A DNA stretch of 64,000 nt from an uncultured Gammaproteobacteria bacterium (GTDB lineage Bacteria > Patescibacteriota > Microgenomatia > Levybacterales > GWA1-39-11), in NCBI GenBank assembly GCA_964537315.1, contig CAZIAP010000005.1:18669-82668 (forward strand). The letters are read 5' to 3'. Below, one piece after another: positions 29,641-57,691 of the stretch. The position numbers were made by a program, and so were the translations under genes. Every line of letters starts with the position of its first letter. Position 1 is the first letter of the stretch. The notes below the pieces were generated by a model that did not search any database, was not told the DNA's origin, and was given only the letters and a program-made list of their open reading frames with translations.

Positions 29641-29643
29641 TTC

Positions 29644-40355: not shown

Positions 40356-40362
40356 CTGATCC

Positions 40363-41975: not shown

Positions 41976-42085
41976 ATTAATCTAATTTCTAATTGCTCTA
42001 ATTGACCTAAGTATATTTGGTCATTAGTAAATTAGAATTTATTTAGAAATTAGAATAATTAGGTTAATTAGAAATTTCAAATATT
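41976..42085. repeat. Palindromic AT-rich intergenic repeat, TTAGAAATTAG / CTAATTTCTAA family
   Basis: Outer arms ctaatttctaattg...ttagaaattag. Nested hairpin ctaattgacc-(11 nt)-ggtcattag. Related copies at 46342, 47214, 48403, 57624 and 26227. Confidence 0.6.
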
Positions 42086-42841
42086 ATGGCAGAAGTAAAA
42101 AAGAATACTAAAAAAACAACTGAGGTAAAGGCTAAGGTAAGCAAGCCAACCGCAACTAAAGCAATGGCGAGCAAGGAAGCACAGCTTAAAGTTAGCGTTG
42201 TAGATATAAATGGAAAGTCAGCTGGAACAATTGAGTTACCAGTAGAGGTATTTGGTGCTAAAGTTAATCCTACACTTATGGCGCAAGCTGTTCGTGTATA
42301 TCTTGCAAACCAGAGGCAGGGAACGGCACGCGCTAAAACTCGTGGTGAAGTAAACGCTTCAACTCGTAAGATTTATCGACAGAAAGGTACTGGGCGCGCA
42401 CGGCACGGTGCGCTTACTGCACCTCTTTTTGTAGGCGGAGGAACAACTTTTGGTCCTAAACCTCGTGATTTTTCATTGAACTTTTCAAAGAAAATGCGTC
42501 GAGCTGCTCTATTTAGTGCTTTGACTCAAAAAGTTGTAAATAAGGAGCTCGTTGTTCTTGATGTATCTAATGGAGTAACAGGAAAAACAAAAGAAATGTT
42601 TGGAGCATTAAAAGCTTTAAATATGCTTAATAAAAAAGGAAAAGGAAATAAGGTTTTGTTAGTTACGCACGACGCTGAGTCGGTAAAAAAAGCAGCGCGT
42701 AATATTGAAGGGGTTCAAGCTACAAGCGTATCAACACTTTCGACTTATACAGTCCTAAATCACAGAAATATAATCTTTGTAAAAGGCGCAGTTGGAAAGA
42801 TGAGTGAAATATATCTAGATAAGCAAGAAGCTAAAAGCTAA
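42086..42841 (+). CDS. rplD: 50S ribosomal protein L4, possibly with ~26-aa Lys-rich N-terminal extension
   Basis: Core [16 protein letters not shown]...GTGRAR. Alternative start at Met 42164 gives a canonical-length L4. Confidence 0.85.
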
Positions 42842-42852
42842 AAACGAAAAAT

Positions 42853-43152
42853 ATGAAATCTATACACGAAGTTATAAAAAAACCAATTATAAGTGAAAAA
42901 TCTTTCGCTGAGGCATCACGCGGCAGATATTCTTTTGTTGTAGATGAGTCTGCAAACAAAAATGATATTAAAGCAGCAGTCGAAAAAATGTTTAATGTCA
43001 AAGTAGTAGGAGTTGCAACAAATATTATCAAAGGATCAAAAATGAGATTTACTAAAAAAGGGAGAAATTTACAAAACTTAACATATAAAAAAGCACGTGT
43101 ACAATTAGCAAAAGATCAAAAAATCGATATCTTCGAGGAGGTAAAAGAATAG
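42853..43152 (+). CDS. rplW: 50S ribosomal protein L23
   Basis: HEVIKKPIISEKS...KYSFVVDESANKNDIKAAVEKMFNVKV. Confidence 0.85.
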   Translation: MKSIHEVIKKPIISEKSFAEASRGRYSFVVDESANKNDIKAAVEKMFNVKVVGVATNIIKGSKMRFTKKGRNLQNLTYKKARVQLAKDQKIDIFEEVKE

Positions 43153-43154
43153 TT

Positions 43155-43898
43155 ATGAGAAAACTTAAAGTAATACTAAAAAAACATTCAGGACGTGATG
43201 GAAGCGGTCAGGTTGTAGTGCGCCATCAAGGAGGAAGGCATAAGAGATTTTATCGTGTTATTGACTTTAAACGAAATAAAATTGATGTAGATGGTACAGT
43301 AACCTCAATTGATTATGATCCAAATCGTTCTGTAGATATTGCTCTTGTGCAGTACGCTGATGGGGATAAAAGATATATTTTATGTCCGGTTGGATTAAAA
43401 GTAGGCGACAAGATAAAGGCAGGCGAGAAGTCTGAAATTAAAACAGGAAATGCGCTTCCTATGCGCAGTATTCCGGTTGGAAGTATTGTACATAATCTTG
43501 AGCTTACAAGAGGTCGTGGTGGACAAATAGTGAGAGCAGCAGGAAATCAGGCTATTATTCAGTCAAGAGAAGGCGGATATGTTCAAGTAAAACTTCCGAG
43601 TGGAGAGATCCGTAAGATAAACGCGGAAAATTATGCTACAATTGGCCAGCTTGGCAATGTCGATCGTAAGGATCGTGTAATGGGTAAAGCAGGTGCGAAC
43701 AGAAGAATGGGTAAACGGCCGACTGTTAGAGGTGTTGCGATGAATCCTCGCTCACATCCTCATGGCGGTGGAGAAGGAAGATCAGGTATTGGTATGCCTT
43801 CACCTAAAACCTATGCAGGAAAGTTAGCAGTAGGAAAAACAAGAAGACCTAAAAAATATTCAGATAAATATATTGTTAAAAGAAGAGGAGAGAAATAA
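43155..43898 (+). CDS. rplB: 50S ribosomal protein L2
   Basis: [18 protein letters not shown]...GNALP...GSIVHNLEL...GQ..RAAG...HPHGGGEG. Confidence 0.9.
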
Positions 43899-43900
43899 TT

Positions 43901-44185
43901 ATGGCAAGATCAAGTAAAAAAGGACCATTAATTGACGAAAGACTAATGAAAAAGGTACAGGCTCAAAAAGAGTCAGGTAATCGTGATGGAATAAAAACCT
44001 GGTCAAGAGCATGTCAAATACCGCCAGAGTTTGTCGGTCACACATTTATGATTCATAACGGTAAGCACTTTATTTCAGTGCGGATTACTGAAGGAATGGT
44101 AGGACATAGACTCGGAGAGTTTGCTCCGACTCGACACTTTAAAGGACACGGAAGAATTGTGGCTCGTGAGATTAGTAAAACCTAG
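43901..44185 (+). CDS. rpsS: 30S ribosomal protein S19
   Basis: [15 protein letters not shown]...[33 protein letters not shown]. Confidence 0.9.
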
Positions 44186-44207
44186 TTAATTGATTAGAAT
44201 TTGAATT

Positions 44208-44711
44208 ATGGAATACAAAGCAGAAGCAAAAAATATTAAGATATCACCCCGCAAAGTGCGGTTGGTAGCAGATAGTGTAAAAGGTTTACAGCTCGATCAG
44301 ATGATTGCTAGTTTGACTGTATTAAACAAAAGAGCGGCTGATCCAATTCGCAAGACTTTGGAAAGCGCAATAGCGAATGCTGTAAATAACTTTCAGGCAA
44401 GCAGAGGAGATCTGAAACTTAAAGAAATAATGATTGGAGAAGGAATCATGTACAAAAGATATCATTTTGCTGCACGGGGTCGTGTTCGCCCGTACCTTCG
44501 TCGTACCAGTCATATTAGGGTGATTTTGGAAGATCAGATTGAAAGAACAGAAATGGCAACAAAAGCAGCAGAGCAAGCAGTAATTAATATGACAGAGCCC
44601 ACCGACGCTAAAGCTATGGAGGGCAAGCCCACTTCTGTTAAAGCTAAGGAAGGAAAAGAAGTAAAGAAAGTTACTAAGAAGGTTGAGAAAAAGAAAGGAG
44701 AAAGTAAATAA
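44208..44711 (+). CDS. rplV: 50S ribosomal protein L22 with ~55-aa K/E-rich C-terminal extension
   Basis: KNIKISPRKVRLVADSVKG L22 core. Tail ...KEGKEVKKVTKKVEKKKGESK. Confidence 0.85.
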   Translation: MEYKAEAKNIKISPRKVRLVADSVKGLQLDQMIASLTVLNKRAADPIRKTLESAIANAVNNFQASRGDLKLKEIMIGEGIMYKRYHFAARGRVRPYLRRTSHIRVILEDQIERTEMATKAAEQAVINMTEPTDAKAMEGKPTSVKAKEGKEVKKVTKKVEKKKGESK

Positions 44712-45352
44712 TGGGACAAAAAGTAAACCCGATTGCATTAAGATTAGGAATTCACCATGACTTCAAGAGCGTGGGATATTATTCTAAGAAAAATTATGCA
44801 TCTACGGTATTGCAAGATATAAAAATTAGAGAAATGTTGTTTGACAAACTCAAGCAAGCAAGTATAGGCGAAGTACAGATATTACGCACATTAAATGGAA
44901 TTAAAATAACGATTCATGTTGTACGTCCTGGTATTGTAATTGGGCGTGGAGGACAAGGGTTAGAAGAGCTTAAGAGGTCAATTGTTCGCGTGATGCAGGA
45001 AACCAGCAAAGAGAAGGTTTCACCACGAATTGAGCTTAAAGTAGAGCCAATTAAGGATCCTAACCTGAGCGCGCATTTAGTAGCAACAAATATCTCTGAT
45101 ATGTTAAATCGTCGCATGCCTCACAGACGTGTAATGAAACAGTCTGCAGAGCGAGTTATGAATGCAGGTGCAAAAGGTGTTAGAATCATACTTTCCGGAC
45201 GTATTGGAGGAGCTGAGATTGGACGAAAAGAAAGAACACAGATCGGAAAGGTGTCTCTTTCAACTATTAGAGAAAACATTGATTATGCACAGATTCCAGC
45301 TTTGACAAAAAGCGGATATGTGGGAGTAAAAGTTTGGATAAATAAGGAGTAA
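44711..45352 (+). CDS. rpsC: 30S ribosomal protein S3
   Basis: MGQKVNPIALRLGI..., KH domain, GRIGGAEIGRKE. Confidence 0.9.
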   Translation: MGQKVNPIALRLGIHHDFKSVGYYSKKNYASTVLQDIKIREMLFDKLKQASIGEVQILRTLNGIKITIHVVRPGIVIGRGGQGLEELKRSIVRVMQETSKEKVSPRIELKVEPIKDPNLSAHLVATNISDMLNRRMPHRRVMKQSAERVMNAGAKGVRIILSGRIGGAEIGRKERTQIGKVSLSTIRENIDYAQIPALTKSGYVGVKVWINKE

Positions 45353-45358
45353 TAAATT

Positions 45359-45775
45359 ATGTTAATGCCAAAAAGATTAAAATATAGAAAAATATTTAAG
45401 CAACGTGAGGATAAAGGCGTAGAGCAAAAAGGAATCACTCTTGCTTTTGGTACATTTGGACTTAGATCTGAGACATCAGGACAGATTACCAGTCGTCAGA
45501 TTGAGTCTGCGCGTCGTGCAATGACCCACTTTACTAAGCGTGGTGGTAGAATTTGGATTCGCATTTTCCCTGCAACTCCAACGACTAAAAAACCGCCTGA
45601 GACTCGAATGGGTGGAGGAAAAGGTGACATACATGAATATGTGACAAAGGTAGGTCCTGGAAGAGTACTTTTTGAAATGAGTGGAGTTAGTGAAGAGGTG
45701 GCTAAAGAAGCGTTCCGTCTTGCTTCACACAAACTGCCTGTAAAAAGTGGTTTTATTACAAGGGAAGGAAAATAG
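45359..45775 (+). CDS. rplP: 50S ribosomal protein L16
   Basis: MLMPKRLKYRKIFKQ...RQIESARRAMTHF...GGGKGDIHEYV. Confidence 0.9.
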   Translation: MLMPKRLKYRKIFKQREDKGVEQKGITLAFGTFGLRSETSGQITSRQIESARRAMTHFTKRGGRIWIRIFPATPTTKKPPETRMGGGKGDIHEYVTKVGPGRVLFEMSGVSEEVAKEAFRLASHKLPVKSGFITREGK

Positions 45776-45776
45776 T

Positions 45777-45992
45777 ATGAAAACGAAAGAAGTAAAAGAA
45801 TTGCCTAATAAGACAAATGCAGATTTAACAAAAATGCTCGATGAGTTGCACTCTTCGTTTGCAAAAAACAAACTTGATTTAAAGCTTGGCAGAAGTAAGA
45901 ATACTGCAGTTTTAAAAGATATCAAGAGAGACATAGCACGGGTAATGACAGTGCTAAAGAAAAAGGAAGGAGAAATTAAAGAAAATGTCTAA
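45777..45992 (+). CDS. rpmC: 50S ribosomal protein L29
   Basis: Start adjusted to MKTKEVKEL. ...LDELHSSFAKNKLDLKLGRSKNTAVLKDIKRDIARV. Confidence 0.8.
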   Translation: MKTKEVKELPNKTNADLTKMLDELHSSFAKNKLDLKLGRSKNTAVLKDIKRDIARVMTVLKKKEGEIKENV

Positions 45993-46341
45993 AAAAATAT
46001 TAACAGGAACAGTAGTTTCGGATAAGATGACCAATACCGTTGTAGTTGAGGTTGTGCGTTACGTTGTGCATCCACTATATAAAAAGAGGATTAAGTTAAC
46101 AAAAAAATATAGTGCGGACACTAATGGAGTACCAAGCGCGGTAGGTGATTTTGTAAAAATTGAGGAGACTGTACCGATAAGTAAGACAAAACATTTTAAG
46201 GTTATTGAAAAGATCGTTGAGATTACACCTGAAGGAGAAAAAACAGCAAAGGTGAGTACGAAAGATACAAAAAACTCAGCTGAAAAAGAAGAAAAAAAGC
46301 CAGCACGAAAAGTCAGAGCAAAGAAAGGAGAATCTAAGTAA
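45985..46341 (+). CDS. rpsQ: 30S ribosomal protein S17 with K/E-rich C-terminal extension
   Basis: ILTGTVVSDKMTNTVVVEVVRYVVHPLYKKRI. About 35-aa tail. Confidence 0.85.
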   Translation: MSKKILTGTVVSDKMTNTVVVEVVRYVVHPLYKKRIKLTKKYSADTNGVPSAVGDFVKIEETVPISKTKHFKVIEKIVEITPEGEKTAKVSTKDTKNSAEKEEKKPARKVRAKKGESK

Positions 46342-46408
46342 AATAGCTAATATCTAACTTCTAATGCCAAATTAGGAATTAGTAATTAGGACTTAGAAAT
46401 TTATAACA
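46342..46408. repeat. Intergenic repeat copy (CTAATNTCTAATGNCAAATTAGGAATTAGTAATTAGGACTTAGAAATTT), about 85% identical to the copy at 57624
   Basis: Direct comparison of the rpsQ-rplN and rplM-rpsI spacers. Confidence 0.6.
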
Positions 46409-46783
46409 ATGGTACAATTACGAACAATGCTAGTATCTGCTGATAACAGCGGAGCGAAAGAACTAATGGTAATCCAGATATATGGTGGATCACGCCGTCG
46501 ATTTGGATATCTTGGTGAAACACTTGGTTGTATTGTAAAGAGAGCATTACCAAATGGTGAGTATAAAAAAGGCGACTTGGTAAAAGTTGTGCTGGTTCGA
46601 ACAAAAAAAGAGGTAAGACGCGCTGATGGATCATATATAAGATTTTCCGAAAATGCAGGTGTTGTAATAAATAGTCTTGAAAATAAGGACCCTGTAGGGA
46701 CACGTGTTTTCGGTCCAATTGCGCGTGAAGTACGTGAGAAAGGATTTACAAAAATTGCGAGCTTAGCAAAAAATGTAGTTTAA
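46409..46783 (+). CDS. rplN: 50S ribosomal protein L14
   Basis: MVQLRTMLVSADNSGAKELMVIQIYGGSRRR. Confidence 0.9.
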   Translation: MVQLRTMLVSADNSGAKELMVIQIYGGSRRRFGYLGETLGCIVKRALPNGEYKKGDLVKVVLVRTKKEVRRADGSYIRFSENAGVVINSLENKDPVGTRVFGPIAREVREKGFTKIASLAKNVV

Positions 46784-46788
46784 ATATT

Positions 46789-47094
46789 ATGAAATTAAAA
46801 AAAGGCGATTTAGTACAAATAATGATGGGAAAAGATAAAGGTAAAACCGGTAAGATTGAACGTGTTTTGCCGAAAAAAAACACAGTTGTAGTGGAAGGAT
46901 TAAATGTTTACAAAAGACACGTAAAAGGTCTTGGTGGACAGCAAGCGTCTGAGATAAAAACATTCTCGCGCCCGTTACCTGTTTCCAAGGTTGCACTGGT
47001 AGATCCAAAGAGCAAGAAACCTACACGTGTAGTATTTAAATCTGAAAAAGGTGAAAAAGTAAGAGTGGCTAAAAAATCAGGCCAAACAATTTAA
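46789..47094 (+). CDS. rplX: 50S ribosomal protein L24
   Basis: [27 protein letters not shown] (KOW motif). Confidence 0.85.
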
Positions 47095-47099
47095 ATATT

Positions 47100-47213
47100 A
47101 TGAAAGTACAAGCATCAGTTAAACCAAGGTGTATGAAATGTAAAATAGTACGCCGAAAAGGAAAAGTATATGTAATTTGTGAGAACCCTAAGCACAAACA
47201 GCGACAGGGATAG
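47100..47213 (+). CDS. rpmJ: 50S ribosomal protein L36 (not in the ORF track; 37 aa)
   Basis: Hand translation gives [37 protein letters not shown], the canonical L36 C-x2-C...C-x4-H zinc-ribbon pattern. Confidence 0.8.
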
Positions 47214-47251
47214 TTTGATAATGTCTAATTTATAATGACAAATTAGTAATT
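47214..47251. repeat. Short copy of the CTAATTT(C/A)TAATGACAAATTAG intergenic repeat
   Basis: gtctaatttataatgacaaattagtaatttt upstream of rplE. Confidence 0.45.
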
Positions 47252-47809
47252 TTGAATATGAGTAGTTATAAAAAAACATATAAAGATGAAATAGTGCCGA
47301 AGCTACAGAAGCGGATGAATATAAAAAATCCGATGGCTGTACCGAGGCTTCAAAAGATCGTAGTTAACACCAGCAATCGTGAGTTTTTGCAGGATAAAAA
47401 GAATATTGAAAAATATGCTGATGAGCTAGTAACAATCACAGGGCAAAAACCAAAGGTTGTAAAAGCAAAAATATCTGTTGCAACATTTAAATTGCGTGAA
47501 GGTGACGATATTGGGTTGGTTGTGACATTACGCGGTGACCGTATGTATGATTTTTTTGAAAAACTTGTTAAAATAGTCCTTCCGCGCGTGAAAGATTTTA
47601 GCGGAGTAAGTAGAGAATCATTTGACGGTCATGGTAATATGACAATCGGGTTTTCTGAACAGACGGTTTTTCCTGAGATTGACCCTGGTAGAGTTGATCG
47701 AATTAGAAGCTTGCAAATGGTACTTGTGACTAGTGCAAGTAACGATGAACAAGGGTTAGCTTTATTAGAGGAAATGGGAATGCCGTTTAAAAAGATAGTA
47801 AAGGAGTAA
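47252..47809 (+). CDS. rplE: 50S ribosomal protein L5
   Basis: Conserved L5 core (...[16 protein letters not shown]...[22 protein letters not shown]). Confidence 0.9.
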
Positions 47810-47811
47810 GT

Positions 47812-47997
47812 ATGGCTAAAAAATCAGACGTAGTAAAATTTGAAAAAAAACAAAAATATAGTACTAGAGAAAAGAACAGATGTGCAATCTGCGGTCGTTC
47901 ACGTGCATTTATTCGCATGTATGGTATGTGTAGAATATGTTTTAGAGAAAAAGCACTGAAAGGACAGTTGCCAGGTGTGAAGAAAGCATCGTGGTAA
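47812..47997 (+). CDS. rpsZ: 30S ribosomal protein S14, zinc-binding type Z (61 aa)
   Basis: [23 protein letters not shown] (C-x2-C...C-x2-C). Confidence 0.85.
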
Positions 47998-48012
47998 GAA
48001 AGGAAAAATAAT

Positions 48013-48402
48013 ATGAATTATACAATGGGTGATTTTATGATTAGGATTAAAAATGCGTATATGGCGCATCTTCCGACAGTGGAAGCACCGTATTCAAAGA
48101 CATCATTGGCATTGGCAAAAATTTTGGTCGATAACAAATACGTAAAAAAAGTTGAAGAAAAAGAAGTGGATGGTTGGAAAAAGCTGGTAGTAACTCTTAG
48201 TTACAGTAAAAGAAACCCGGCGTTAAGCAACGTGAAAATTATTTCTACGCCATCATTACACATTTACGTAAAGAAACATGAGTTGCCTACAAAAGTCCGT
48301 GAGCTGGGTATTCATATAATTTCTACCAGTAAAGGACTAATGTCAGATAAAGACGCTATGAAAGCTGGAGTTGGAGGGAAGCTTCTTTTCCAGGTTCAAT
48401 AA
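48013..48402 (+). CDS. rpsH: 30S ribosomal protein S8
   Basis: DFMIRIKNAYMA...IISTSKGLMSDKDA...GGKLLFQV. Confidence 0.9.
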   Translation: MNYTMGDFMIRIKNAYMAHLPTVEAPYSKTSLALAKILVDNKYVKKVEEKEVDGWKKLVVTLSYSKRNPALSNVKIISTPSLHIYVKKHELPTKVRELGIHIISTSKGLMSDKDAMKAGVGGKLLFQVQ

Positions 48403-48518
48403 GGAAAAGAAGAAATTAACCTAATTTCTAATTGACCTAATTAACCAAAAGTTAGATCAATTGAAAATTGGGATTTGTTTAGAAATTAGTAATTAGAATA
48501 ATTAGAAATTTATAAAAT
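48403..48518. repeat. Palindromic AT-rich intergenic repeat (same family as 41976..42085)
   Basis: cctaatttctaattgacctaatt...tttagaaattagtaattagaataattagaaattt. The left arm is nearly identical to the rplC-rplD copy. Confidence 0.6.
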
Positions 48519-49061
48519 ATGTCAAATATAGGAAAAGTACCAGTAGAAATAAAAGAAGGAGTTCAAGTCACAATTGACGGTAGTAAGGCAGTGGTTACAG
48601 GACCTAAAGGTACATTGGAGCAGAGAATTCCAAGAGGTATTGCAGTAGAGCAGGAAAATGGACACTTAGTAGTTAAAAAAGTTCACGATAGTAAAGAGCT
48701 TGAAAAGTTTTATGGTCTTACCCGAGCGCTACTTGCGAACATGGTAATCGGCGTAAGTGAAGGGTTTACAAAGCAAATGGAGCTTCATGGAGTAGGGTAT
48801 CGCGCAAAAGTAGAAGGAAATGTTCTTGTACTGAATGTCGGATTTGCTCACCCTGTCAGAATTACTCCGCCTGAAGGTGTAACATTTACCGTAGCAGATA
48901 ATAATATTAATATTTCAGGAATAAACAAAGAGTTAGTGGGAGATATTGCAAGTAAGATTAGAAAAGTACGTCCTCCGGATCCATATAAATCAAAGGGTAT
49001 TCGGTATGCAGGAGAAATACTAAAGAAGAAAGCAGGTAAGTCTGCAAAAGCAGCTAAATAA
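48519..49061 (+). CDS. rplF: 50S ribosomal protein L6
   Basis: MSNIGKVPVEI...VTGPKGTL...GVGYRA. Confidence 0.9.
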   Translation: MSNIGKVPVEIKEGVQVTIDGSKAVVTGPKGTLEQRIPRGIAVEQENGHLVVKKVHDSKELEKFYGLTRALLANMVIGVSEGFTKQMELHGVGYRAKVEGNVLVLNVGFAHPVRITPPEGVTFTVADNNINISGINKELVGDIASKIRKVRPPDPYKSKGIRYAGEILKKKAGKSAKAAK

Positions 49062-49070
49062 AGGAGAAAT

Positions 49071-49430
49071 ATGAGTGAAATAATAACAAAAAAAGAACGA
49101 AGGATACGGCGCGTGAATCGCGTACGTAGTAAATTATTGGATCAAAACGGAAAACTTAGAATATCAGTTTTTGCATCTAATAAGCATATGTATGCTCAAA
49201 TTATTGATGATGCAGATGGAAAGACATTAGTAAGTGTGTCTATGACTGATGTGAAGAGTGCCAAAGGATCAAAAAGTGAGATCGCAGCTCAACTCGGATC
49301 ACTTCTTGCAGAGAAAGCAAAGAGTGCAAAAATTAATGACAATATGGTATTTGATAAGGGTAGGTATAAGTATCATGGGCGCGTTAAAGCATTTGCAGAC
49401 GCAGCTCGAGAAGCAGGTCTTAAGTTTTAA
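49071..49430 (+). CDS. rplR: 50S ribosomal protein L18
   Basis: RLSVFASNKHMYAQIIDD...VFDKGRYKYHGRVKAFADAAREAGLKF. Confidence 0.85.
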   Translation: MSEIITKKERRIRRVNRVRSKLLDQNGKLRISVFASNKHMYAQIIDDADGKTLVSVSMTDVKSAKGSKSEIAAQLGSLLAEKAKSAKINDNMVFDKGRYKYHGRVKAFADAAREAGLKF

Positions 49431-49459
49431 GGTATAATAAATATATAAATTTAAATATT

Positions 49460-49915
49460 ATGGACAATCAACAAAAATACGAAGAAAAAATTGTACAAAT
49501 TAATAGAGTTTCTAAAAAAACTAAAGGTGGCAATAAAGTAAGGTTTGCCGCTCTTGTAGTTGTGGGTGATAAGCAAGGAAAGGTCGGAGTAGGGCTTGGA
49601 AAGTCAGAAGATGTCTCAAGCGCAATAATTAAGGCAGTTGCGTACGCTAAAAACAGGCTTATTGATGTACCGATCGTAAATGAAACTATCCCTCACAAAG
49701 TGCAGATTAAAGAAGGAGCATCTATTATTATGCTCAAGCCAGCACCACAAGGAACAGGTATTATCGCAGGAGGAGCAGTAAGAAGCGTGGTTGAAGCAGC
49801 AGGAATTAGAAATATATCTTCTAAAATTCTGGGAACTTCAAATAAAGCAAGCAATGTTTATGCAACATTTGAGGCTTTAAGAAAGCTGGGAAAGCAAAAT
49901 GGAGGAGTTAAATAA
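49460..49915 (+). CDS. rpsE: 30S ribosomal protein S5
   Basis: VQINRVSKKTKGGNKVRFAALVVVGDKQGKVGVGLGKS...GTGIIAGGAVRSV. Confidence 0.9.
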   Translation: MDNQQKYEEKIVQINRVSKKTKGGNKVRFAALVVVGDKQGKVGVGLGKSEDVSSAIIKAVAYAKNRLIDVPIVNETIPHKVQIKEGASIIMLKPAPQGTGIIAGGAVRSVVEAAGIRNISSKILGTSNKASNVYATFEALRKLGKQNGGVK

Positions 49916-50355
49916 TGGAATTACATAATTCGGTTAAAATAGTAGATAAGAAACATAAAAGAGTCGGACGGGGACACGGTTCTGGCCGAGGAAAAACAGC
50001 CGGACGTGGAACTAAAGGTCAAAAGGCTCGACGTGATATTAGCTTGTCGTTTGAAGGTGGAGCACTACCATTAATCAAACGTATGCCATTTCTACGTGGT
50101 AAAGGCAGAAATGCTGCAATTAAGGCTCCCGCTGTTGAAATCACTTTGTCAGTACTCAATCAACTTCCGGCAAAAAGCGTGGTGACAAAAGACCTATTAA
50201 TTGAGCATAAAATCATCCAATCCGGAACAAAAAGAGTAAAAGTTATCTCAACTGGTACGATTGAGAATCAATTAACTGTGCAGATACCTGTATCAAAAGG
50301 TGCTCAAGCAGCAATTGAAAAAGTTGGCGGAAAAGTAGAACTAAGTAGCGACTAG
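49915..50355 (+). CDS. rplO: 50S ribosomal protein L15 (abuts S5; no L30 gene between)
   Basis: KRVGRGHGSGRGKTAGRGTKGQKARR. Confidence 0.85.
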   Translation: MELHNSVKIVDKKHKRVGRGHGSGRGKTAGRGTKGQKARRDISLSFEGGALPLIKRMPFLRGKGRNAAIKAPAVEITLSVLNQLPAKSVVTKDLLIEHKIIQSGTKRVKVISTGTIENQLTVQIPVSKGAQAAIEKVGGKVELSSD

Positions 50356-50405
50356 TGTTTAGTTTAAAATGAACTATGTGCTGAACGCTAAACGCTGAAA
50401 AATAT

Positions 50406-51689
50406 ATGGCTTCATTTTTTAGTATCTTTAAGAATAGTATAAAAGATCGGGAGATCCGACGAAAACTTGCCATCACTGCACTACTTTTCCTCGTATTTAG
50501 ATTTTTTGCACACATCCCAGTCTCCGGTGTAAATATCACACAACTACAAGCATTATTTGCGCAAAATCAATTTCTAGGATTACTTGATATCTTCTCAGGA
50601 GGAACAATCTCTAATTTCTCTGTCTTAGCATTGGGCTTGGGACCATATATTTACGCTTCAATCGTGCTGCAACTTCTAACGGTGGTTTATCCAAAATTAG
50701 AAGCGTTATCAAAAGAAGGCGAGTACGGGAGACAGAAAATAAATCAATATACACGTTACTTAACTGTACCTCTCGCATTTATACAGGGTTTTGGTATTTT
50801 TGCTCTTCTAAGATCCCAGAATCTGATTGGCAACTTAGGAGTGATTGAGCTGGCTTCGTTTATCGTTACCTTGGTAGCAGGTACTTTATTTGTAATGTGG
50901 ATAGGAGAATTACTTTCTGAACAAGGAATTGGAAATGGAATTTCTCTACTAATTTTTGCTGGAATTGTAAATAGAATTCCTGTTATTGCAGGTCAGACTA
51001 TCACAACTTTAGGCCAGGCAGATATCATGAATATAGCGCTATTTATTGCTATCGGAGTTATTATGGTAGCAGCTGTGGTCGCAATTAATGAGGCTGTAAG
51101 AAGGGTGCCTATTTTTTATGCACGAAGAGTTAGAGGTTCTCAGTCTGTCTCTGCTCAGTCAACACATCTTCCGTTAAAACTTAACCAAGCTGGAGTTATT
51201 CCAATTATTTTTGCTGTTTCATTTGTGCTACTGCCTTCTATGATGGGAAACTATTTATTGGCAGCCGGAAATGAAACTTTAAATGCGATAGGTCGATTTT
51301 TTGCAACTTACTTTAGTCCGCAGCATCCGGTATATAACATAATTTACTTTTTGATGATTTTTGGCTTTACTTATCTTTATACTGCGATTATTTTCAATCC
51401 CCAGAAAATTTCTGAAGATTTGCAAAAACAAGGTGGTTTTATACCAGGAATTCGTCCAGGTAAACCTACCGCTGCGTTTCTAAACACAATTGTAACTCGT
51501 ATCACGTTTGCTGGCGCACTTTTCTTAGGTATTATTGCTGTATTGCCTAACTTGCTTGGACTATTTACTAATACCCAAAGTCTAATTATTGGAGGTACTA
51601 GCATCCTAATTGTGGTATCGGTAGTGATTGAGACGATTAAAATTCTTGAAGTACAGCGTACTACGCGTAGTTACGATCAGTTTAAATAG
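50406..51689 (+). CDS. secY: Preprotein translocase SecY
   Basis: Ten TM helices, ...[17 protein letters not shown]... and conserved SecY blocks. Confidence 0.9.
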
Positions 51690-51697
51690 CCACTTGT

Positions 51698-52273
51698 GTG
51701 GATATGGATAGGAAAAAAACATTGAAGATAGTATTAATTGGCATACAGGGATCAGGAAAATCAACACAAGGAAACTTGCTTTCAAAAAAACTCAAGGTTC
51801 CTTATCTTTCTACAGGACATATTCTCCGCGAACTTTCAAAAGAAAAAACCCGACTCGGTAGGTATATTAAAGAGACGATTAATGCAGGTGTTCTTGTGCC
51901 TGATAGTAGAATGATTCCGATTGTTGAAGATTATCTTCGACGAAAAGAGTACGAAGGCGGATATATCCTTGATGGGTTTCCGCGTACTGTAGCACAGGCG
52001 AAAGTATTTAATGGTGATATAGACGCAGTAATATACCTCAATGTTTCTGATAAAGAAGCGCTTTGGCGACTTTCATATCGAGAAGAGGATGAAGAGGAAG
52101 ATAGAGAGGATGCTACTTTGCTTGCAATTCGTAAAAGAATTGAATTGTTTCATGAGTATACTCTCCCCGTTTTAAAATATTACAGAAATAAAGATAAGTT
52201 AATTGAGATTAATGGTGAGCAGGAAATTGAAGAAATTCACAAAGAGATAATGAACAAACTTAAATTTAAGTAA
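51698..52273 (+). CDS. adk: Adenylate kinase (short form, no zinc lid)
   Basis: KIVLIGIQGSGKSTQG...YLSTGHILR...GYILDGFPRT. Confidence 0.8.
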   Translation: MDMDRKKTLKIVLIGIQGSGKSTQGNLLSKKLKVPYLSTGHILRELSKEKTRLGRYIKETINAGVLVPDSRMIPIVEDYLRRKEYEGGYILDGFPRTVAQAKVFNGDIDAVIYLNVSDKEALWRLSYREEDEEEDREDATLLAIRKRIELFHEYTLPVLKYYRNKDKLIEINGEQEIEEIHKEIMNKLKFK

Positions 52274-52992
52274 TGAAAAGAGGATTTGTAATTGCGATAG
52301 ATGGACCGGTCGCGTCAGGAAAAGGCACTGTTGCAAAAAAGCTCTCAAAAACAATAAATGCATTAAATTTTAATTCAGGAGGAGTATATCGGGCTTATGC
52401 AAGCAAGCTCAGAAATCTAGGAGTTTCACCTGATAATGATCAAGAAATCAAAAAATATCTTAAACCTGGTGATGTTGAAATCACTATAGATCAAGCAAGG
52501 AAAGATGAATTTATTATTACATTAAACGGAATTGATGTAACTGAAACCTTGTTTACTCCTGAAATCTCAATGGCAGCATCTGATTTTGGAAAAAGCCGTG
52601 TGTTCGTTGAGTTTATTAGCTCTGAATTGCGAAGAATTGCAAAAAAATATGAGAGTTCGGGATTTAGTATAATTATGGAAGGACGGCAAATTGGAGTAGA
52701 CGTTTTTCCAGATGCTGATGTAAAGCTTTTTTTGACCGCTGACCTGAAGACTCGTGCGAAAAGAAGACACACTCAGTACCAGTTAAAACAGATTGATAAG
52801 GTTTATAGCGAGGTGGAAAAAGAAACACATTTACGGGATAAGCAAGATATGAACCGTGAGTACGGTGCTCTACCCCGTAATCCGGAAAAACTGGATTATG
52901 ATATTATAGATAACTCTAACCTAAGTGAACAAGAAACGCTTAGCAAGATACTAAAAGTATTAGAAAAAAAAGGTATATGGAAAAAAAATTAG
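52273..52992 (+). CDS. cmk: Cytidylate kinase
   Basis: IAIDGPVASGKGTVAKKLSK...SGGVYR...MEGRQIGVDVFPDADVKLFLTADLKTRAKRR. Confidence 0.8.
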   Translation: MKRGFVIAIDGPVASGKGTVAKKLSKTINALNFNSGGVYRAYASKLRNLGVSPDNDQEIKKYLKPGDVEITIDQARKDEFIITLNGIDVTETLFTPEISMAASDFGKSRVFVEFISSELRRIAKKYESSGFSIIMEGRQIGVDVFPDADVKLFLTADLKTRAKRRHTQYQLKQIDKVYSEVEKETHLRDKQDMNREYGALPRNPEKLDYDIIDNSNLSEQETLSKILKVLEKKGIWKKN

Positions 52993-53783
52993 AACAAAAA
53001 ATTGAAGCAATGAGTAAGGCAGGCGAGATACTCGGAGCTGCATTGGATGATGCACTAAAACATGCAAAGCCGGGAGTTACCGAGCTTGAGCTTAACGACA
53101 TCGTTGATAAATTTATTACTAAGCATGGTGGCTTTCCGGGTTTTAAGAAAGTTCCAGGATACAAACACGCGATCTGTGCCTGTACAAATGATGTGGTAGT
53201 GCACGGAATTCCAAAAGATAGAATCCTTAAAAAAGGAGATATCATATGTATAGACACAGGAGTATTTTTAGATGGCTACCATACTGATATGGGAGAAACA
53301 ATCAAAGTGGGGGAAGGGGTAGTAGATACCAAAGAGGATACTGACGAAGTTGGTAGATTCCTTTCAGTTGGTAAAAGGACTATGTGGAAAGCGATTGAGC
53401 AGGCTATCCCAGGAAACAGGGTAGGTCATATTTCTCAAGTTATTCAGCAAAATGTAGAAAGTGCTGGATACTCAGTGGTTAGAAATCTAGTCGGACATGG
53501 AGTGGGAAAGACTCTGCATGAAAAGCCTGAAATCCCTGGCATTTTATCACAAAGTATAGACAAGACTCCTTTAATCAAATCAGGAATGACTTTGGCGATT
53601 GAGGTAATTTATAATATGGGTGAACCGGACGTGGAGTACGATGGGGAAGACGGCTGGACGATTTTAACCTCAGATGGATCACTCTCTGCAGTGTTTGAAC
53701 GGACAATTTTAGTGAGTGATAATGGGCCTATATTGTTGACAAAACTTCCTTCGGACGAGGCTACCAGAACACTGGAGTTATAG
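52977..53783 (+). CDS. map: Methionine aminopeptidase type I
   Basis: ...HGIP...DIICIDTGVFLDGYHTD...VGHGVGKTLHEKPEIP...AIEVIY (conserved metal ligands). Confidence 0.85.
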   Translation: MEKKLEQKIEAMSKAGEILGAALDDALKHAKPGVTELELNDIVDKFITKHGGFPGFKKVPGYKHAICACTNDVVVHGIPKDRILKKGDIICIDTGVFLDGYHTDMGETIKVGEGVVDTKEDTDEVGRFLSVGKRTMWKAIEQAIPGNRVGHISQVIQQNVESAGYSVVRNLVGHGVGKTLHEKPEIPGILSQSIDKTPLIKSGMTLAIEVIYNMGEPDVEYDGEDGWTILTSDGSLSAVFERTILVSDNGPILLTKLPSDEATRTLEL

Positions 53784-53858
53784 TATTGATTACAGGTAAG
53801 AAATCTGTTAGAATAACTCATCCCAGTATAGTAGGGTAGTTTTTTGTGGGGTTAATGT

Positions 53859-54077
53859 ATGGTACATCAAGGTGCGATTGAAATTGACGGAGTAGTAAAG
53901 GAAGTGTTGCCAAATACATTATTTAGAGTTGAGGTTGAAGGTGGACATGAGGTTTTATGTCATTTGTCAGGAAAAATGAGAATTCATTTCATTAAAATCC
54001 TCCCGGGTGATAAAGTAAAAGTTGAGATTACACCTTACGATAAAACAAAAGGAAGAATAACTTATCGAATGAGATAA
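53859..54077 (+). CDS. infA: Translation initiation factor IF-1
   Basis: [64 protein letters not shown]. Confidence 0.9.
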
Positions 54078-54184
54078 AATAAAAAGTTAAAAGTGAGAAG
54101 TCAAAAACACAATTAAAAATTAAGAAGTTTTGACTTTTGAGTTGTAACTTTGAGTTTTGAATTTTAATTTTTAAATTAACTATC

Positions 54185-54574
54185 ATGCGTTTAGTAGGAG
54201 TAAATATACCGGACAACAAAAGAATAGATATAGCACTGACCTATATATATGGAGTAGGGCGTACAAACGTGTATAAAATCTTAGAAACTGCTGGTATTGA
54301 TCCTGCAACTCGTAGTCATACTCTTAAAGAAGATGATTTGGGTCGTTTACAAAAAGCGCTTGAAGAATACAAGATAGAGGGTGATTTACGCGCTGAAATA
54401 TTTGAAAATACAAAACGATTAAGAGAGATTTCAAGCTACAGAGGGATCCGACACACACGTGGTCTTCCTGTACGCGGACAGAGAACCAGATCTAATGCAC
54501 GTACAAAAAGAGGTAAGCGTGTAACTATCGGTGCTATCAGAAAAGAAGTTGCAGAGAGAATGGGAGTTAAATAA
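54185..54574 (+). CDS. rpsM: 30S ribosomal protein S13
   Basis: [27 protein letters not shown]...[23 protein letters not shown]. Confidence 0.9.
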
Positions 54575-54575
54575 T

Positions 54576-54977
54576 ATGGCAAAACCACGAGCTGCTAAAA
54601 GAATTACAAAAAAACAAAAACAAATGGTTACAACTGGTGCTGGGCGAGTGTATGTCAGCACAACCTTCAATAACACCATTGTTACAGTTACCAACGAAAA
54701 AGGCGATGCAGTTGCTTGGAGTAGTGCAGGAGCTGCAGGTTTCAAAGGAGCAAGAAAGTCAACTCCATATGCCTCAACTTCAGTAGTCGAAGACGCAATC
54801 AAAAAAGCACGTGAAGTAGGAGTAAACTCTGTTGAAGTATATATTAAAGGTCCGGGAGTAGGAAGAGACGCAGCTCTACGTGCAATTAGAAACTCAGGTA
54901 TGGCAATTGCGATGATAGCAGATATAACTCCGATTCCACATAATGGACCAAGACCTAAGAAGAAAAGAAGAAATTAA
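54576..54977 (+). CDS. rpsK: 30S ribosomal protein S11
   Basis: Start adjusted to MAKPRAAKR. ...[36 protein letters not shown]... Confidence 0.9.
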
Positions 54978-54987
54978 GTATTAAAAT

Positions 54988-55593
54988 ATGGCACGATATA
55001 CAGGACCAAAACATAAATTATCAAGAAGAGAGGGCGTAAACCTTACAGGGAAAATGTCTCAGTCTCTCGATAGAAGATTAACCAATCCTCCGGGAGGAAT
55101 AAATCGTCGTGGACGTCCACGTAAAATGTCAGAGTATGGAATTCAGTTGCGAGAAAAGCAAAAACTTAAGAGAATATATGGTCTCCTTGAAAAACAGTTC
55201 TCACGATATGTAGATGAAGCATCTAGATTACCAGGCAATACAGAAGAACTATTAGTTCAGTTGCTTGAATCACGTCTCGATAATATAGTGTATCGTATGG
55301 GATTTGCCAACTCACGAGCTCAGGCGCGTCAGTATGTGTCTCATGGACACATTTCAGTAAATGATCAAAAAATTAGTATTCCTTCCTACCGTGTAAAAGA
55401 AGGGGATGTAGTCTCACTTCGCTCAAAGCTTGCGGATCTTGATTTTATAAAAACTAAGCTTACAGAGGAAGAATCGATGACCGATTTTGTAAAACGAACC
55501 AAAGATAAAGGGCAGGTTTTACGCATGCCAACACGTGATGAAGTAGCAAATCCTGTAGATTACGCTTTGGTTGTTGAATTTTACTCAAGATAA
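54988..55593 (+). CDS. rpsD: 30S ribosomal protein S4
   Basis: MARYTGPKHKLSRREG...SEYGIQLREKQKLKRIYG...LESRLDN and S4 RNA-binding domain. Confidence 0.9.
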   Translation: MARYTGPKHKLSRREGVNLTGKMSQSLDRRLTNPPGGINRRGRPRKMSEYGIQLREKQKLKRIYGLLEKQFSRYVDEASRLPGNTEELLVQLLESRLDNIVYRMGFANSRAQARQYVSHGHISVNDQKISIPSYRVKEGDVVSLRSKLADLDFIKTKLTEEESMTDFVKRTKDKGQVLRMPTRDEVANPVDYALVVEFYSR

Positions 55594-55669
55594 TAGTACA
55601 ATAGTGTTCTGTGAGCCTTAAACGGCATTAATATGTGTGTGGCTTGCAGAGAATTTTTTAAAAAATATT

Positions 55670-56608
55670 ATGATTGAACCAAATTTTAAAGTTATAGAAG
55701 AGGCACAAGACGGAGTATATACTCGTTTCGTTGTTGAGCCTCTAGAGCCAGGTTTCGGACACACCTTGGGTGTAGCTCTACGTAGAGTTATGCTAAATAA
55801 TATTGAAGGTGCAGCTGTTACATCCGTTAAAATTGATGGCGTTAAACATATGTTTTCTACGCTTCCTGGTCTTAAGGAAGATATAATCGAACTTATTCTC
55901 AACATTAAAACTTTACAAGTAAAACTAGCAGAAGGTCAGAATGAAGCAAGAATGACCCTTGCAAAAACAGGTCCTGGAAAAGTTCTTGCAAAAGATATTG
56001 AAGTAACTGAAGGTGTAGAGATTGTAGATCCTGAACATTATTTGGGAAGTCTCGCAGATAAAAATTCCAAACTGGAGATTGAGTTCACAGTTGAGAGAGG
56101 ACTCGGATACTCACTTTCAGAAGAGAGAAAAGTTTCAACTGTTGGTGTTATTCCAATTGACGCTATTTTTTCACCAATTCAAAAAGTAAATTATAAAGTA
56201 GAACAGACTCGTGTTGGACGTCAGACTAACTATGACAAAGTAATTTTTGAAGTCTGGACAGATGGAACAGTTAATGCTCGTGAAGCATTGGATGAATCAA
56301 GCAGAATATTAGTATCATATTTCTCTACGATTACTCAGCCAAAAGAAGCAGGAAACGCTGAATTGTCATCAGAAGATGCAGGAGTTGCAGCAACATCTGA
56401 GATTTCTGACGATCTTATGAGAATGACAGTTGACGAACTTGATCTACCTACAAGAATTTATAATAGTCTTCGAAATGCAGGCATAGAAACTGTAGGAGAC
56501 ATGTTAAATACTCCTAGAAAAGAACTTATGACGTATAGAAACCTAGGTGCAAAATCACTTTCAATAATTGACGAAAGCCTGGCAGAAAAAGGAATTACAT
56601 ATAACTAA
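55670..56608 (+). CDS. rpoA: DNA-directed RNA polymerase alpha subunit
   Basis: Start adjusted to MIEPNFKV. ...EPLEPGFGHTLGVALRRVML... and C-terminal domain with DELDLPTRIYNSLRNAGIETVGDM. Confidence 0.9.
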   Translation: MIEPNFKVIEEAQDGVYTRFVVEPLEPGFGHTLGVALRRVMLNNIEGAAVTSVKIDGVKHMFSTLPGLKEDIIELILNIKTLQVKLAEGQNEARMTLAKTGPGKVLAKDIEVTEGVEIVDPEHYLGSLADKNSKLEIEFTVERGLGYSLSEERKVSTVGVIPIDAIFSPIQKVNYKVEQTRVGRQTNYDKVIFEVWTDGTVNAREALDESSRILVSYFSTITQPKEAGNAELSSEDAGVAATSEISDDLMRMTVDELDLPTRIYNSLRNAGIETVGDMLNTPRKELMTYRNLGAKSLSIIDESLAEKGITYN

Positions 56609-56635
56609 TTCCTGCACAAAAAATATACGAACTAT

Positions 56636-56662
56636 ATGCGTCGAGGCTGACGCATTTTTTGT
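56636..56662 (+). terminator. Rho-independent terminator or attenuator between rpoA and rplQ
   Basis: ATGCGT-CGAGGCTG-ACGCAT followed by TTTTTGTT. Confidence 0.5.
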
Positions 56663-56676
56663 TAAAAGGGGATAAT

Positions 56677-57189
56677 ATGAGAAAGAAAATATTTGGTAGA
56701 AGATTTAAACGAGACATAAATCAGCGAAAAGCGTTATTTCGCAGTTTAATGCGTGAGCTTGTATTACAGGAGCGAATTAAAACTACTGAGGCTAAGGCAA
56801 AATCTATTAAAGCCGAAGTAGAAAAGCACGTAACAAAAGCAAAAGTTCAAGGAGACGCAGCACGGGTACATTTAATGCGTACTTTTAACCATGATGTGGT
56901 TGATAAAATTGTAACCGATCTGGCTCCTCGTTTTGCAGAACGTCCAGGAGGATATACACGAATTATTCGTCTCGGAAACAGAACCAAGGATAACGCTCCA
57001 ATGGTTTACATTGAATGGGTTGAGAAATCAAGTGTAGTATCTGAGCCAAAAACAAAAAAAAGAGCTAAAAAAGAAGTGAGTGAAAAAACATCTTCAGAGG
57101 TTAAAGCTGCTAAAGTTAAGGAAAATAAAGAAGAAAAAACAACTAAAAAACCAGCAAAAAAAGCTGCAGTAAAGAAAGAGGATAAATAA
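56677..57189 (+). CDS. rplQ: 50S ribosomal protein L17 with Lys-rich C-terminal extension
   Basis: Start adjusted to MRKKIFGRR (GGGGA RBS). ...RKALFRSLMRELVLQERIKTT... About 50-aa K/E/A tail. Confidence 0.85.
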   Translation: MRKKIFGRRFKRDINQRKALFRSLMRELVLQERIKTTEAKAKSIKAEVEKHVTKAKVQGDAARVHLMRTFNHDVVDKIVTDLAPRFAERPGGYTRIIRLGNRTKDNAPMVYIEWVEKSSVVSEPKTKKRAKKEVSEKTSSEVKAAKVKENKEEKTTKKPAKKAAVKKEDK

Positions 57190-57191
57190 CT

Positions 57192-57623
57192 ATGAAAACA
57201 ACTACACCAACAAAAGAAAGTCAGATCGAGCGCAGTTGGCACGTTATTGATCTAAAAGATCAAACACTCGGTCGTGCAGCTACAAAAATAGCAGAACTGC
57301 TAATGGGAAAAAATAAAACATATTTTGTTCGCAATTTAGATTGCGGAGATCATGTAGTTGTTACAAATGCGAAAGACTTTATCGTGACTGGTAATAAAGA
57401 AAACGCAAAACTGTATACAAGATACTCAGGGTTTCCAGGTGGTTTAAAAAAAGAAACTTTAGGAAGACTAAGAGACCGTAAACCAGAGGAAGCTATAAGA
57501 CATGCTGTTTCAGGCATGTTGCCAAAGAATAGGCTGCGTGATAAAATGCTCAAACGTTTACATGTATATGTAGATGAAAATCATCCGTACGAAGATAAAG
57601 TTAAAAAGGAGGAAGCTAAGTAA
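57192..57623 (+). CDS. rplM: 50S ribosomal protein L13
   Basis: ERSWHVIDLKDQTLGRAATKIAELLMGKNK...DHVVVTNA. Confidence 0.9.
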   Translation: MKTTTPTKESQIERSWHVIDLKDQTLGRAATKIAELLMGKNKTYFVRNLDCGDHVVVTNAKDFIVTGNKENAKLYTRYSGFPGGLKKETLGRLRDRKPEEAIRHAVSGMLPKNRLRDKMLKRLHVYVDENHPYEDKVKKEEAK

Positions 57624-57691
57624 AATAACTACTAACTAATTTCTAATGACAAATTAGGAATTAAGAATTAGGACTTAGAAATTTTAAATAT
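57624..57691. repeat. Intergenic repeat copy (CTAATTTCTAATGACAAATTAGGAATTAAGAATTAGGACTTAGAAATTT)
   Basis: About 85% identical to 46342..46408. Contains the 7-bp inverted repeat CTAATTT...AAATTAG. Confidence 0.6.

Follow-up and report, generated by a model that had tools for sequence, protein, structure and literature searches.

Heptad palindromes between ribosomal protein genes of a candidate-phyla-radiation bacterium: signs of an origin at the DNA level

Why should a ribosomal protein (r-protein) gene cluster whose junctions mostly measure -16 to 29 nt be interrupted at five places by palindromic spacers of 110, 67, 44, 116 and 68 nt? The cluster lies on the + strand of a 64,000-nt stretch of contig CAZIAP010000005.1, the whole of which we call the window. 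On the open reading frame (ORF) map it comprises, in its first part, tuf, rpsJ, an unknown ORF, rplC to rpsQ, rplN, rplX and rpmJ, and in its second part rplE to rplO, secY, adk, cmk, map, infA, rpsM, rpsK, rpsD, rpoA, rplQ, rplM and rpsI; these gene names find support in the Pfam labels on orthologous contigs and on one identical contig (L017). The nearest public relatives are metagenome-assembled genomes labelled Candidatus Levyibacteriota, and we therefore take the host to be a bacterium of the candidate phyla radiation (CPR). The five spacers, and a tandem array elsewhere in the window, carry copies of a repeat family built on the hexamers CTAATT and AATTAG (Table 1). A first-pass annotation of the same DNA had described this family, and all six of its sites exist as described, with the junctions correctly named and the spacers (44-116 nt) rightly called unusually long. 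L017, an independent Logan contig from the same sample series, spans the copy in rpsH-rplF and the greater part of the one in rpmJ-rplE and is 100% identical, so the elements are not an artefact of one assembler; L017, L105 and L106 represent the same population as the window, at 100% identity.

Our preferred reading, to which we give a probability of roughly 0.55, is that the elements are dispensable palindromes of heptad units, generated and spread at the DNA level, and not regulatory RNA. What would make them tolerable between cistrons is that the start region stays open, A/U-rich and free of a Shine-Dalgarno (SD) motif. The elements lie between a stop codon and the next start, are patchy among relatives and leave an unpaired, A/U-rich stretch of 15-18 nt without SD before the ATG. 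Comparison of orthologous junctions shows essential r-protein genes to tolerate an insertion of 70-110 nt between the upstream stop (and the former SD) and the start codon.

Structure of the CTAATT/AATTAG elements

The 11-mer CTAATTTCTAA, which had been proposed as the core of the family, is strongly enriched, with 6 occurrences on both strands of the 64-kb window against 0.21 expected from shuffles (17 against 4.2 if at most one mismatch is allowed), and the copies align over whole spacers. It is not, however, the repeat unit. That unit is a 7-nt, sometimes 9-nt, repeat with the hexamer core CTAATT/AATTAG and variable linkers between the cores, successive TTAG or CTAA motifs being spaced by 7 nt in 28 cases and by 9 nt in 18. 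The density of both hexamers is 50-70 times higher inside the five spacers than elsewhere in the window, the CTAA units are confined to the 5' half of the spacers and the TTAG units to the 3' half, and Tandem Repeats Finder (TRF) reports period 7 within the elements at 46370-46401, 48479-48510 and 57652-57683.

Copy A consists of four CTAA units, a small central GACC/GGTC hairpin and six TTAG units; copy B of three CTAA and four TTAG units around the loop GCCAA; and copy C of a single unit per arm (CTAATTT ... AAATTAG). Copies B and E are identical at 57 of 67-68 nt without a gap, in agreement with the 85% given earlier, and copies A and D at 85 of 110-116 nt (about 75%), so that the kinship first seen in their left arms extends beyond these and takes in the non-repetitive centre. 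There are two subfamilies, short (B and E) and long (A and D), and copy C is a miniature that shares TAATGACAAATTAG with the short type (copy E). Copy C had been recognised correctly but ended too early, since the ATG of rplE is at 47258. The tandem version in an accessory region is also borne out (period 7, 7.6 copies at 26228-26280 in TRF); it has no predicted fold and lies 22 nt past the stop of the minus-strand ORF 26306-26773.

The 3' ends of the elements are the most uniform in placement. The exact 10-mer TTAGAAATTT occurs four times in the 64 kb, each time as the last unit of a full copy, and begins 18 nt ahead of ATG 42086 (copy A), 16 nt ahead of ATG 46409 (B), 17 nt ahead of ATG 48519 (D) and 17 nt ahead of ATG 57692 (E). 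In all five window copies the last TTAG is found 15-18 nt ahead of the next ATG with no SD motif in between; an SD-like GGAAAAGAAG stands to the left of copy D. The rpsS-rplV spacer may hold a solo terminal unit, and the same junction in relative L002 is a 94-nt heptad hairpin.

The inverted arms are 18-27 nt long and 78-94% complementary, and the predicted RNA folds of the five copies range from -5 to -23 kcal/mol (z -0.5 to -2.8), or from -11 to -23 kcal/mol (z -1.1 to -2.8) for the full copies A, B, D and E, with many alternative registers. The hairpin potential that the first-pass annotation pointed out is, on these predictions, real but moderate. The AUG and 11-31 nt upstream of it are unpaired in the predicted folds. 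Sites of RNase III comprise about 20 bp or more of near-continuous double-stranded RNA, and the predicted stems measure 17-30 bp with mismatches and alternative registers; processing by RNase III, or a stabilising effect of the hairpins, is conceivable, but the heptad hairpins have no sense-strand G.U signature (see below).

Turnover at orthologous junctions and heptads at large

Genus-level relatives, defined by 70-85% identity over five r-proteins, all have the gene order of the window in the genomes compared, the unusual position of rpmJ included. Apart from the 100% identical contigs of the same population, no relative among the matches listed exceeds about 84% r-protein identity to the window. 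The first-pass annotation had asked whether relatives have the same spacers, and they do not: the element junctions are either empty (2-13 nt) or occupied by hairpins of different, unrelated heptads. The rpsH-rplF junction measures 9-10 nt in L001, L003/L018, L021 and L181, and is occupied elsewhere by four heptad families, CTAATTT in the window, GATTGA./AGTCAAT in L002, GGTAGC./AAGCTAC in L020 and AAAGCG./TTTTAGC in L023. Conversely, one heptad family can sit at different junctions in different genomes, as the AGTCAAT family does at rplC-rplD, rplV-rpsC, rpsH-rplF and rplO-secY in L002 and at rplQ-rplM and rplM-rpsI in L020. By the identity matrix, occupancy does not track relatedness. L001 is nearly empty, though 85% identical to the heavily filled L020, and in L002, the nearest relative of the window (84%), the junctions used in the window are filled by other units. 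Spacers with a regulatory look are conserved across the relatives, namely the 230-nt rplC leader, map-infA, rpsD-rpoA and the hairpin after rpoA (rpoA-rplQ). Because the element junctions are empty or differently filled while these spacers are conserved, the comparison shows the elements to be dispensable and to turn over, as true control regions do not. An orthologous junction in these operons may be empty, filled, or filled with another unit, and the three states can be set side by side.

L002 (CAYVAJ010000003.1) is titled 'uncultured Gammaproteobacteria bacterium'; its Levyibacteriota-type gene order and the 84% identity of its r-protein cluster to the window indicate that this bin label is probably wrong. 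In L023 (1277-2349), rpsN follows directly after rplC with a hairpin of TTTTCCA-family heptads at the joint, which results from a large deletion or else from two repeat copies having been collapsed in assembly. Such repeats can collapse assemblies of r-protein operons, which are used as phylogenetic markers, and L023 may be an example.

The patchiness bears directly on the proposal that the spacers hold operon-specific regulatory sites such as internal promoters, attenuators or r-protein operators. In Escherichia coli the S10/spc/alpha-type operons are controlled at intercistronic or leader sites, and location inside such clusters is the sole support for this proposal here. No + strand sigma-70-like site is present in the four large spacers, and a scan of the cluster region for -35/-10 pairs gave hits at chance level (52 against 55.3 expected), although CPR promoters could differ from the consensus used. 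Intrinsic terminators (a G+C-rich stem with a T run) are absent from the spacers and occur elsewhere, at 41035-41059 and 56636-56655. The elements match no Rfam family, leaders included, at the gathering score or at E<=1. They are absent or replaced in relatives where genuine leaders are conserved, and the CTAATT unit is also found outside operons, in unrelated contexts. We consider operon-specific sites of any kind very improbable, and internal promoters or r-protein operators, both suggested by the first-pass annotation, essentially excluded.

Neither are CTAATT-type elements limited to ribosomal spacers, nor heptads to the CTAATT unit. The earlier description of a family in ribosomal spacers was correct as to those copies, and the window holds other heptad arrays besides, among them an infA-rpsM hairpin of another unit, AAAAGTN/TTTTGAN, a family which is found in distant CPR loci too. 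In a self-similarity scan over lags 2-14, period 7 gave seven strong regions and the other periods from 2 to 11 gave none; periods 12, 13 and 14 gave 1, 1 and 8 regions, 14 being the double of 7. Period-7 arrays are intergenic in 56 of 79 cases, while intergenic DNA makes up 9.8% of the sequence.

We extended the survey to 100 loci among the matches listed, mostly distant CPR relatives from metagenomes, with 1195 cluster junctions. Of these junctions 274 measure at least 40 nt, and 40 of the long spacers contain a strong period-7 array; the corresponding counts are 0-4 at the other periods from 4 to 11 and 0 in shuffled sequence. These arrays come from 19 loci and occupy 20 different junctions. 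Of the 40, 23 are of the hairpin type, and the arrays start a median of 2.5 nt after the stop codon and end about 8 nt before the start. Units other than CTAATT that recur across distant loci are AAAGTCA, AATCTCA and ACGCTAA.

Presence or absence at identical junctions, the same families at different junctions, copies that are dispersed and homologous over their full length, and the occurrence of the CTAATT family in deeply divergent lineages and in viral contigs (see below) would suit a non-autonomous mobile element, comparable to repetitive extragenic palindromes (REP), their bacterial interspersed mosaic elements (BIME) or miniature inverted-repeat transposable elements (MITEs), whose hairpin would be recognised by a transposase from a phage or from another part of the genome, and which would spread within and between CPR genomes. 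The suggestion of MITE-like repeats had been made before and holds for dispersal and for presence and absence between relatives, but not for the other hallmarks. Filled and empty junctions, when compared, yield no target-site duplication and no duplicated flanks, the ends are not sharp, and both unit number and length vary. No gene for a transposase, a REP-associated tyrosine transposase (RAYT) or an HUH protein was detected by Pfam among the approximately 40 ORFs of the window, which covers only 64 kb of the genome. The many unrelated heptad families with the same architecture argue, moreover, for a generator that is independent of sequence, and we regard a mobile element as rather unlikely.

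Table 1. Heptad repeats and CTAATT-type elements in the window, with CTAATT copies in distant loci
Feature	Location	Position	Strand	Predicted fold (kcal/mol; z)	Evidence or remark
Long copy A	rplC-rplD spacer	41976..42085	+	-22.9; -2.3	Inverted-repeat search, fold, alignment
Short copy B	rpsQ-rplN spacer	46342..46408	+	-11.5; -1.1	Fold, alignment (85% identical to copy E)
Mini copy C	rpmJ-rplE spacer	47214..47257	+	-5.4; -0.5	Fold, alignment
Long copy D	rpsH-rplF spacer	48403..48518	+	-21.9; -2.8	Inverted-repeat search, fold, alignment
Short copy E	rplM-rpsI spacer	57624..57691	+	-10.7; -2.7	Inverted-repeat search, fold, alignment
Tandem-only array, TAGAAAT x 7.6 on + strand		26227..26283	.	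none; +2.1	Without inverted partner nearby
Possible solo terminal unit, TTAATTGATTAGAATTTGAATT then ATG	rpsS-rplV spacer	44186..44207	+		Weak call, by eye; resembles 3' end of copy A
Heptad hairpin, unit AAAAGTN / TTTTGAN	infA-rpsM spacer	54078..54184	+	-20.4; -1.9	
Tandem heptad array, TATACTT-like x 8 on minus strand	Before msrA-like gene	9462..9530	-		Fills stop-to-start spacer; TRF 9467-9524
Tandem heptad array, NNNATAC x 8	Immediately upstream of PD-(D/E)XK nuclease gene	26864..26927	+		TRF
CGGTTCA x 5 (perfect), then TTCAATT-like x 5	Between convergent genes	29641..29722	.		TRF 29643-29677, 29688-29722
CAGTATY x 4 heptad array	Straddles stop codon of GH18-domain gene	37393..37431	+		TRF 37397-37428
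Distant CTAATT copies, L058	rpsE-rplO; infA leader				infA leader copy behind TATAAT-like box
Distant CTAATT copy, L065	rplV-rpsC				
Distant CTAATT copies, L036 and L079	infA leader				

Translation starts and the level at which the hairpins evolve

To what extent do the elements matter once transcribed? In the window, an SD motif precedes none of the six hairpin-preceded genes, compared with 15 of the 26 other genes (p=0.019). In the near clade the motif is found before 7 of 49 genes that follow spacers of at least 40 nt and before 57 of 99 that follow shorter ones (p=4e-7), and in the wider census it is found before 20% of the genes after period-7 spacers versus 49% after short spacers. The genes behind the elements would thus have to start without it.

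If the hairpins were under selection in the mRNA, mismatches between their arms should favour sense-strand G.U over A.C. We counted mismatches in gapped arm alignments, scoring all of them equally. The heptad hairpins have 55 G.T and 64 A.C mismatches (p=0.46), with no sense-strand G.U signature, whereas non-heptad hairpins in the same operons have 41 and 17 (p=0.002), and the contrast between the two classes is significant as well (p=0.002). The arms diverge at the linkers while the cores stay unchanged, meaning that the sequence is conserved and not the pairing. The lack of a G.U signature together with this conservation of sequence points to a strand-symmetric origin of the heptad hairpins at the DNA level, as far as can be judged from the alignments.

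Under our preferred reading, arrays would arise and change in length by replication slippage, a process known for its preference for 7-nt units, and the inverted arm would come from fold-back or template switching. Whole elements would be copied between the intercistronic sites of one genome through ectopic recombination or some mobilisation. In the mRNA each element would form a moderately stable stem-loop that leaves the start codon unmasked, and the downstream r-protein gene would be initiated without SD, in the UUUAAAUAUU-AUG context of the other SD-less genes of the cluster or, alternatively, by ribosomes that have just terminated upstream.

Two further ideas were considered and set aside. 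Bridging of an SD to the AUG by a hairpin is known from phage T4 genes 38 and 25, and SD-like GGAGG motifs are present in the 3' ends of rplC, rpsQ and rplM; as the main mechanism it was rejected because the folded hairpin still leaves about 26-35 nt (16+19 nt in copy B). That the heptads contain TAA or TAG in order to provide stops in all frames was provisionally dropped, on the ground that other common units, such as AAAGTCA, have no stop codon.

Several observations weigh against a purely DNA-level account. CTAATT hairpins with mixed 7/9-nt units are found in four loci whose r-proteins show only 50-55% identity, with the units CTAATTT, CTAATTGAC and CTAATTAAC in one arm and TTAGAAA, TTAGGTTAA and TTAGAATAA in the other, and they end as the window copies do, in ...TTAG(A/G)AATT(T/G) followed by 6-8 nt and the ATG. 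In three of these distant genomes (L036, L058 and L079) the element stands in the 5' leader of infA. The placement of the 3' end 15-18 nt from the ATG, seen in all window copies, is similar in five distant copies. The core is conserved while the linkers vary, and register ambiguity in A-rich arrays may blur the comparison of G.T with A.C mismatches. One recurring heptad family even has a tail of its own that carries a canonical SD, GAGCGACTGAAAGGAGCGA-ATG. Finally, in a collection of viral contigs the pattern CTAATTTCTAATT-N1-3-CTAATT matches 64 loci, and three permuted heptads of the same composition match 2, 5 and 3. CTAATT arrays are thus 13-30 times commoner there than the permuted heptads, which pure slippage would not predict. 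The core recurrence, viral enrichment, conserved core, anchoring to the ATG, infA leaders and SD tail together hint at sequence-specific recognition or a function at the start site; a sequence-specific role in translation stays conceivable for the elements.

Of the 78 arrays in the viral contigs, 75 are intergenic, and the G+C content of some of the contigs that carry them is 46-60%. Neither orientation relative to the downstream gene is preferred (25 versus 20), nor is the distance to that gene fixed. Examples of CTAATTN arrays among the viral loci (L107-L170) are L151 at 3640-3780, 5330-5470 and 6620-6760 and L107 at 3540-3760, and some viral arrays form heptad hairpins (GGAAATT.../...AATTTCT). 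In the SD-tailed family, AAAGTNA/TTTTGAN hairpins of L034, L058, L065, L075 and L083 end in a conserved (T)TTGAGCGACTGAAAGGAGCGA(T)T-ATG with the canonical SD inside, and front different genes (rpsN, rplP and rplF), as if hairpin and ribosome-binding site had been copied as one cassette.

The main rival to our reading is a functional start-site module, in which hairpin and A/U-rich tail would form a portable cassette for SD-independent initiation, translational coupling or mRNA stabilisation. A conserved factor, whether S1-like, Csp-like or the ribosome itself, would recognise it through its AAUUAG units, as has been proposed for TAACTGA repeats. The uniform position of the last TTAG in five window and five distant copies, the lack of an SD between element and start, the unpaired AUG, the core in distant CPR lineages and their infA leaders, its conservation between variable linkers, its enrichment over permuted controls in viral contigs and the sister family that brings its own SD all fit this proposal, and TAACTGA repeats share the placement and the SD depletion, also inside r-protein operons (PMC4679880). 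However, close relatives express the same essential genes with spacers of 2-13 nt and no element, other genomes have unrelated heptads at the same junction, the sense-strand G.U signature is missing, the viral arrays occur in both orientations and at no fixed distance, and the tandem-only copy at 26227-26283 follows a stop codon far from any start. We hold such a module to be doubtful.

A more far-reaching version, which we consider unlikely, is that the CTAATT/AATTAG hairpins are a conserved, horizontally shared cis-element, read by a sequence-specific factor or by the ribosome, that is placed 15-18 nt ahead of the start codon, replaces the SD of essential genes (r-proteins and IF-1) in several CPR lineages and is used by phages too. 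If true, modules for translation initiation, coupling or mRNA protection would gain a new class, and the excess of heptamer repeats, long unexplained, would find a functional cause. Slippage alone does not explain the recurrence of the CTAATT core across distant genomes and viral contigs.

Relation to known repeats and other features of the window

The first-pass annotation missed that the elements are members of a wider class of heptameric intergenic repeats; open-access full text yielded no description of such elements in CPR bacteria. The short tandemly repeated repetitive (STRR) sequences of heterocystous cyanobacteria have the units CCCCAGT, TTGGTCA or CAACAGT. The window elements, with the unit CTAATTN/AATTAGN and a Levyibacteriota-like CPR host, are not STRR proper. 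Citing earlier work, Rehm et al. (2015; PMC4692102) summarise that many bacterial genomes have more heptameric repeats than expected and that this over-representation is strong in intergenic regions of Xanthomonas and Nostoc, also inside operons. Some of the repeats form inverted pairs; related species have them between the same genes with extensive variation in length and sequence; and slippage tied to the contact length of the polymerase is proposed for them. The GGGAATC and GGGGAYT repeats of Xanthomonas and Nostoc are described there as G-rich and quadruplex-forming. Like the STRR, Xanthomonas and Nostoc heptamers, the window elements consist of 7-nt head-to-tail units, are intergenic, also inside operons, and vary at the same site in relatives. 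Unlike those repeats, which are G-rich or cyanobacterial, they have AT-rich units, form palindromes for the most part and are anchored close to start codons.

The TAACTGA direct repeats that MacGregor (2015; PMC4679880) describes in marine Beggiatoaceae, some Cyanobacteria and Bacteroidetes end a few nucleotides before start codons and overlap the expected ribosome-binding site, canonical SD motifs being rare there (about 10%). They also occur inside r-protein operons, before L3 and S4, have a patchy phyletic distribution without a known transfer mechanism, and are of unproven function (PMC4679880). The window elements similarly end near start codons and occupy five S10/spc/alpha-type junctions, and SD is rare (0/6) behind them, but they differ in the unit, CTAATT(N)/AATTAG(N), in the mixed 7/9-nt spacing, in the inverted pairs in place of direct repeats of one orientation, and in the CPR host. 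On our best reading, the nearest counterparts of the CTAATT elements are the TAACTGA repeats and the STRR heptamers of cyanobacteria, and the elements share all the positional features named above for TAACTGA and heptamer repeats. Heptamer repeats (STRR, TAACTGA, GGGAATC) have been described several times and are left unexplained in PMC4679880 and PMC4692102, and the present data extend them to CPR bacteria and into the best-conserved operons.

The resemblance to dispersed palindromes of other kinds is more superficial. By description, the window elements are similar to REP and BIME in being dispersed intercistronic palindromes that vary between relatives and can form hairpins, but differ from them in their length of 44-116 nt, the variable number of heptads, the many unrelated units and the lack of a GTAG head in the CTAATT family; no RAYT was seen among the approximately 40 ORFs of the window. 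The enterobacterial REP has a fixed sequence of about 35 nt, an imperfect palindrome headed by GTAG, and comes with a RAYT of its own; REP and BIME are dispersed in intercistronic and 3' operon regions, vary between strains and form stem-loops in the mRNA. MITEs such as Correia, RUP and Nezha are short, non-coding, dispersed and hairpin-capable insertions, present or absent between relatives. Unlike these, the window elements have no terminal inverted repeats distinct from their body, no target-site duplication, no parent insertion sequence and no uniform size (44, 67, 68, 110 and 116 nt).

A few further features of the window were noted. rpmJ (L36; 47100-47213) is flanked by rplX and rplE and not by infA and rpsM, a placement common to L002, L003, L021 and L181; the usual rpmJ site, infA-rpsM, is occupied by a heptad hairpin in the window. 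At 29641-29824, the CGGTTCA and TTCAATT-like arrays are followed by 8-nt AACTTTTT-like arrays, which places several unrelated short-period arrays within 184 nt. The 142-nt spacer at 19132-19273, between two ORFs without Pfam match, contains an inverted repeat with 17-nt arms (GCCGAAAGGTAGATAGA / TCAATCTATCTTTCGGC) and a 48-nt loop, which has no Rfam match at the gathering score. The window contains no rRNA gene.

Within the cluster, an unknown ORF (40363-40884, without Pfam match) and a 230-nt leader separate rpsJ from rplC (40267-41114). The leader contains a promoter-like site, TTGCAA-17-TATAAT, at 40912-40940 and a terminator-like hairpin with a T run at 41035-41059, is kept in L002 and L003, and has no Rfam match; it could act as an attenuator of an operon led by rplC. 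The L30 gene is absent between rpsE and rplO (49460-50355), which overlap by 1 nt, and a missing L30 has been reported for CPR bacteria. The protein uL3 (286 aa) has an acidic C-terminal tail and uL4 (251 aa) an N-terminal extension. Outside the cluster, three minus-strand genes (13501-14457, 22902-23564 and 25238-25963) encode proteins with the CAP (cysteine-rich secretory protein) domain, and the start codon of the third is preceded, at a distance of about 265 nt, by the TAGAAAT tandem array.

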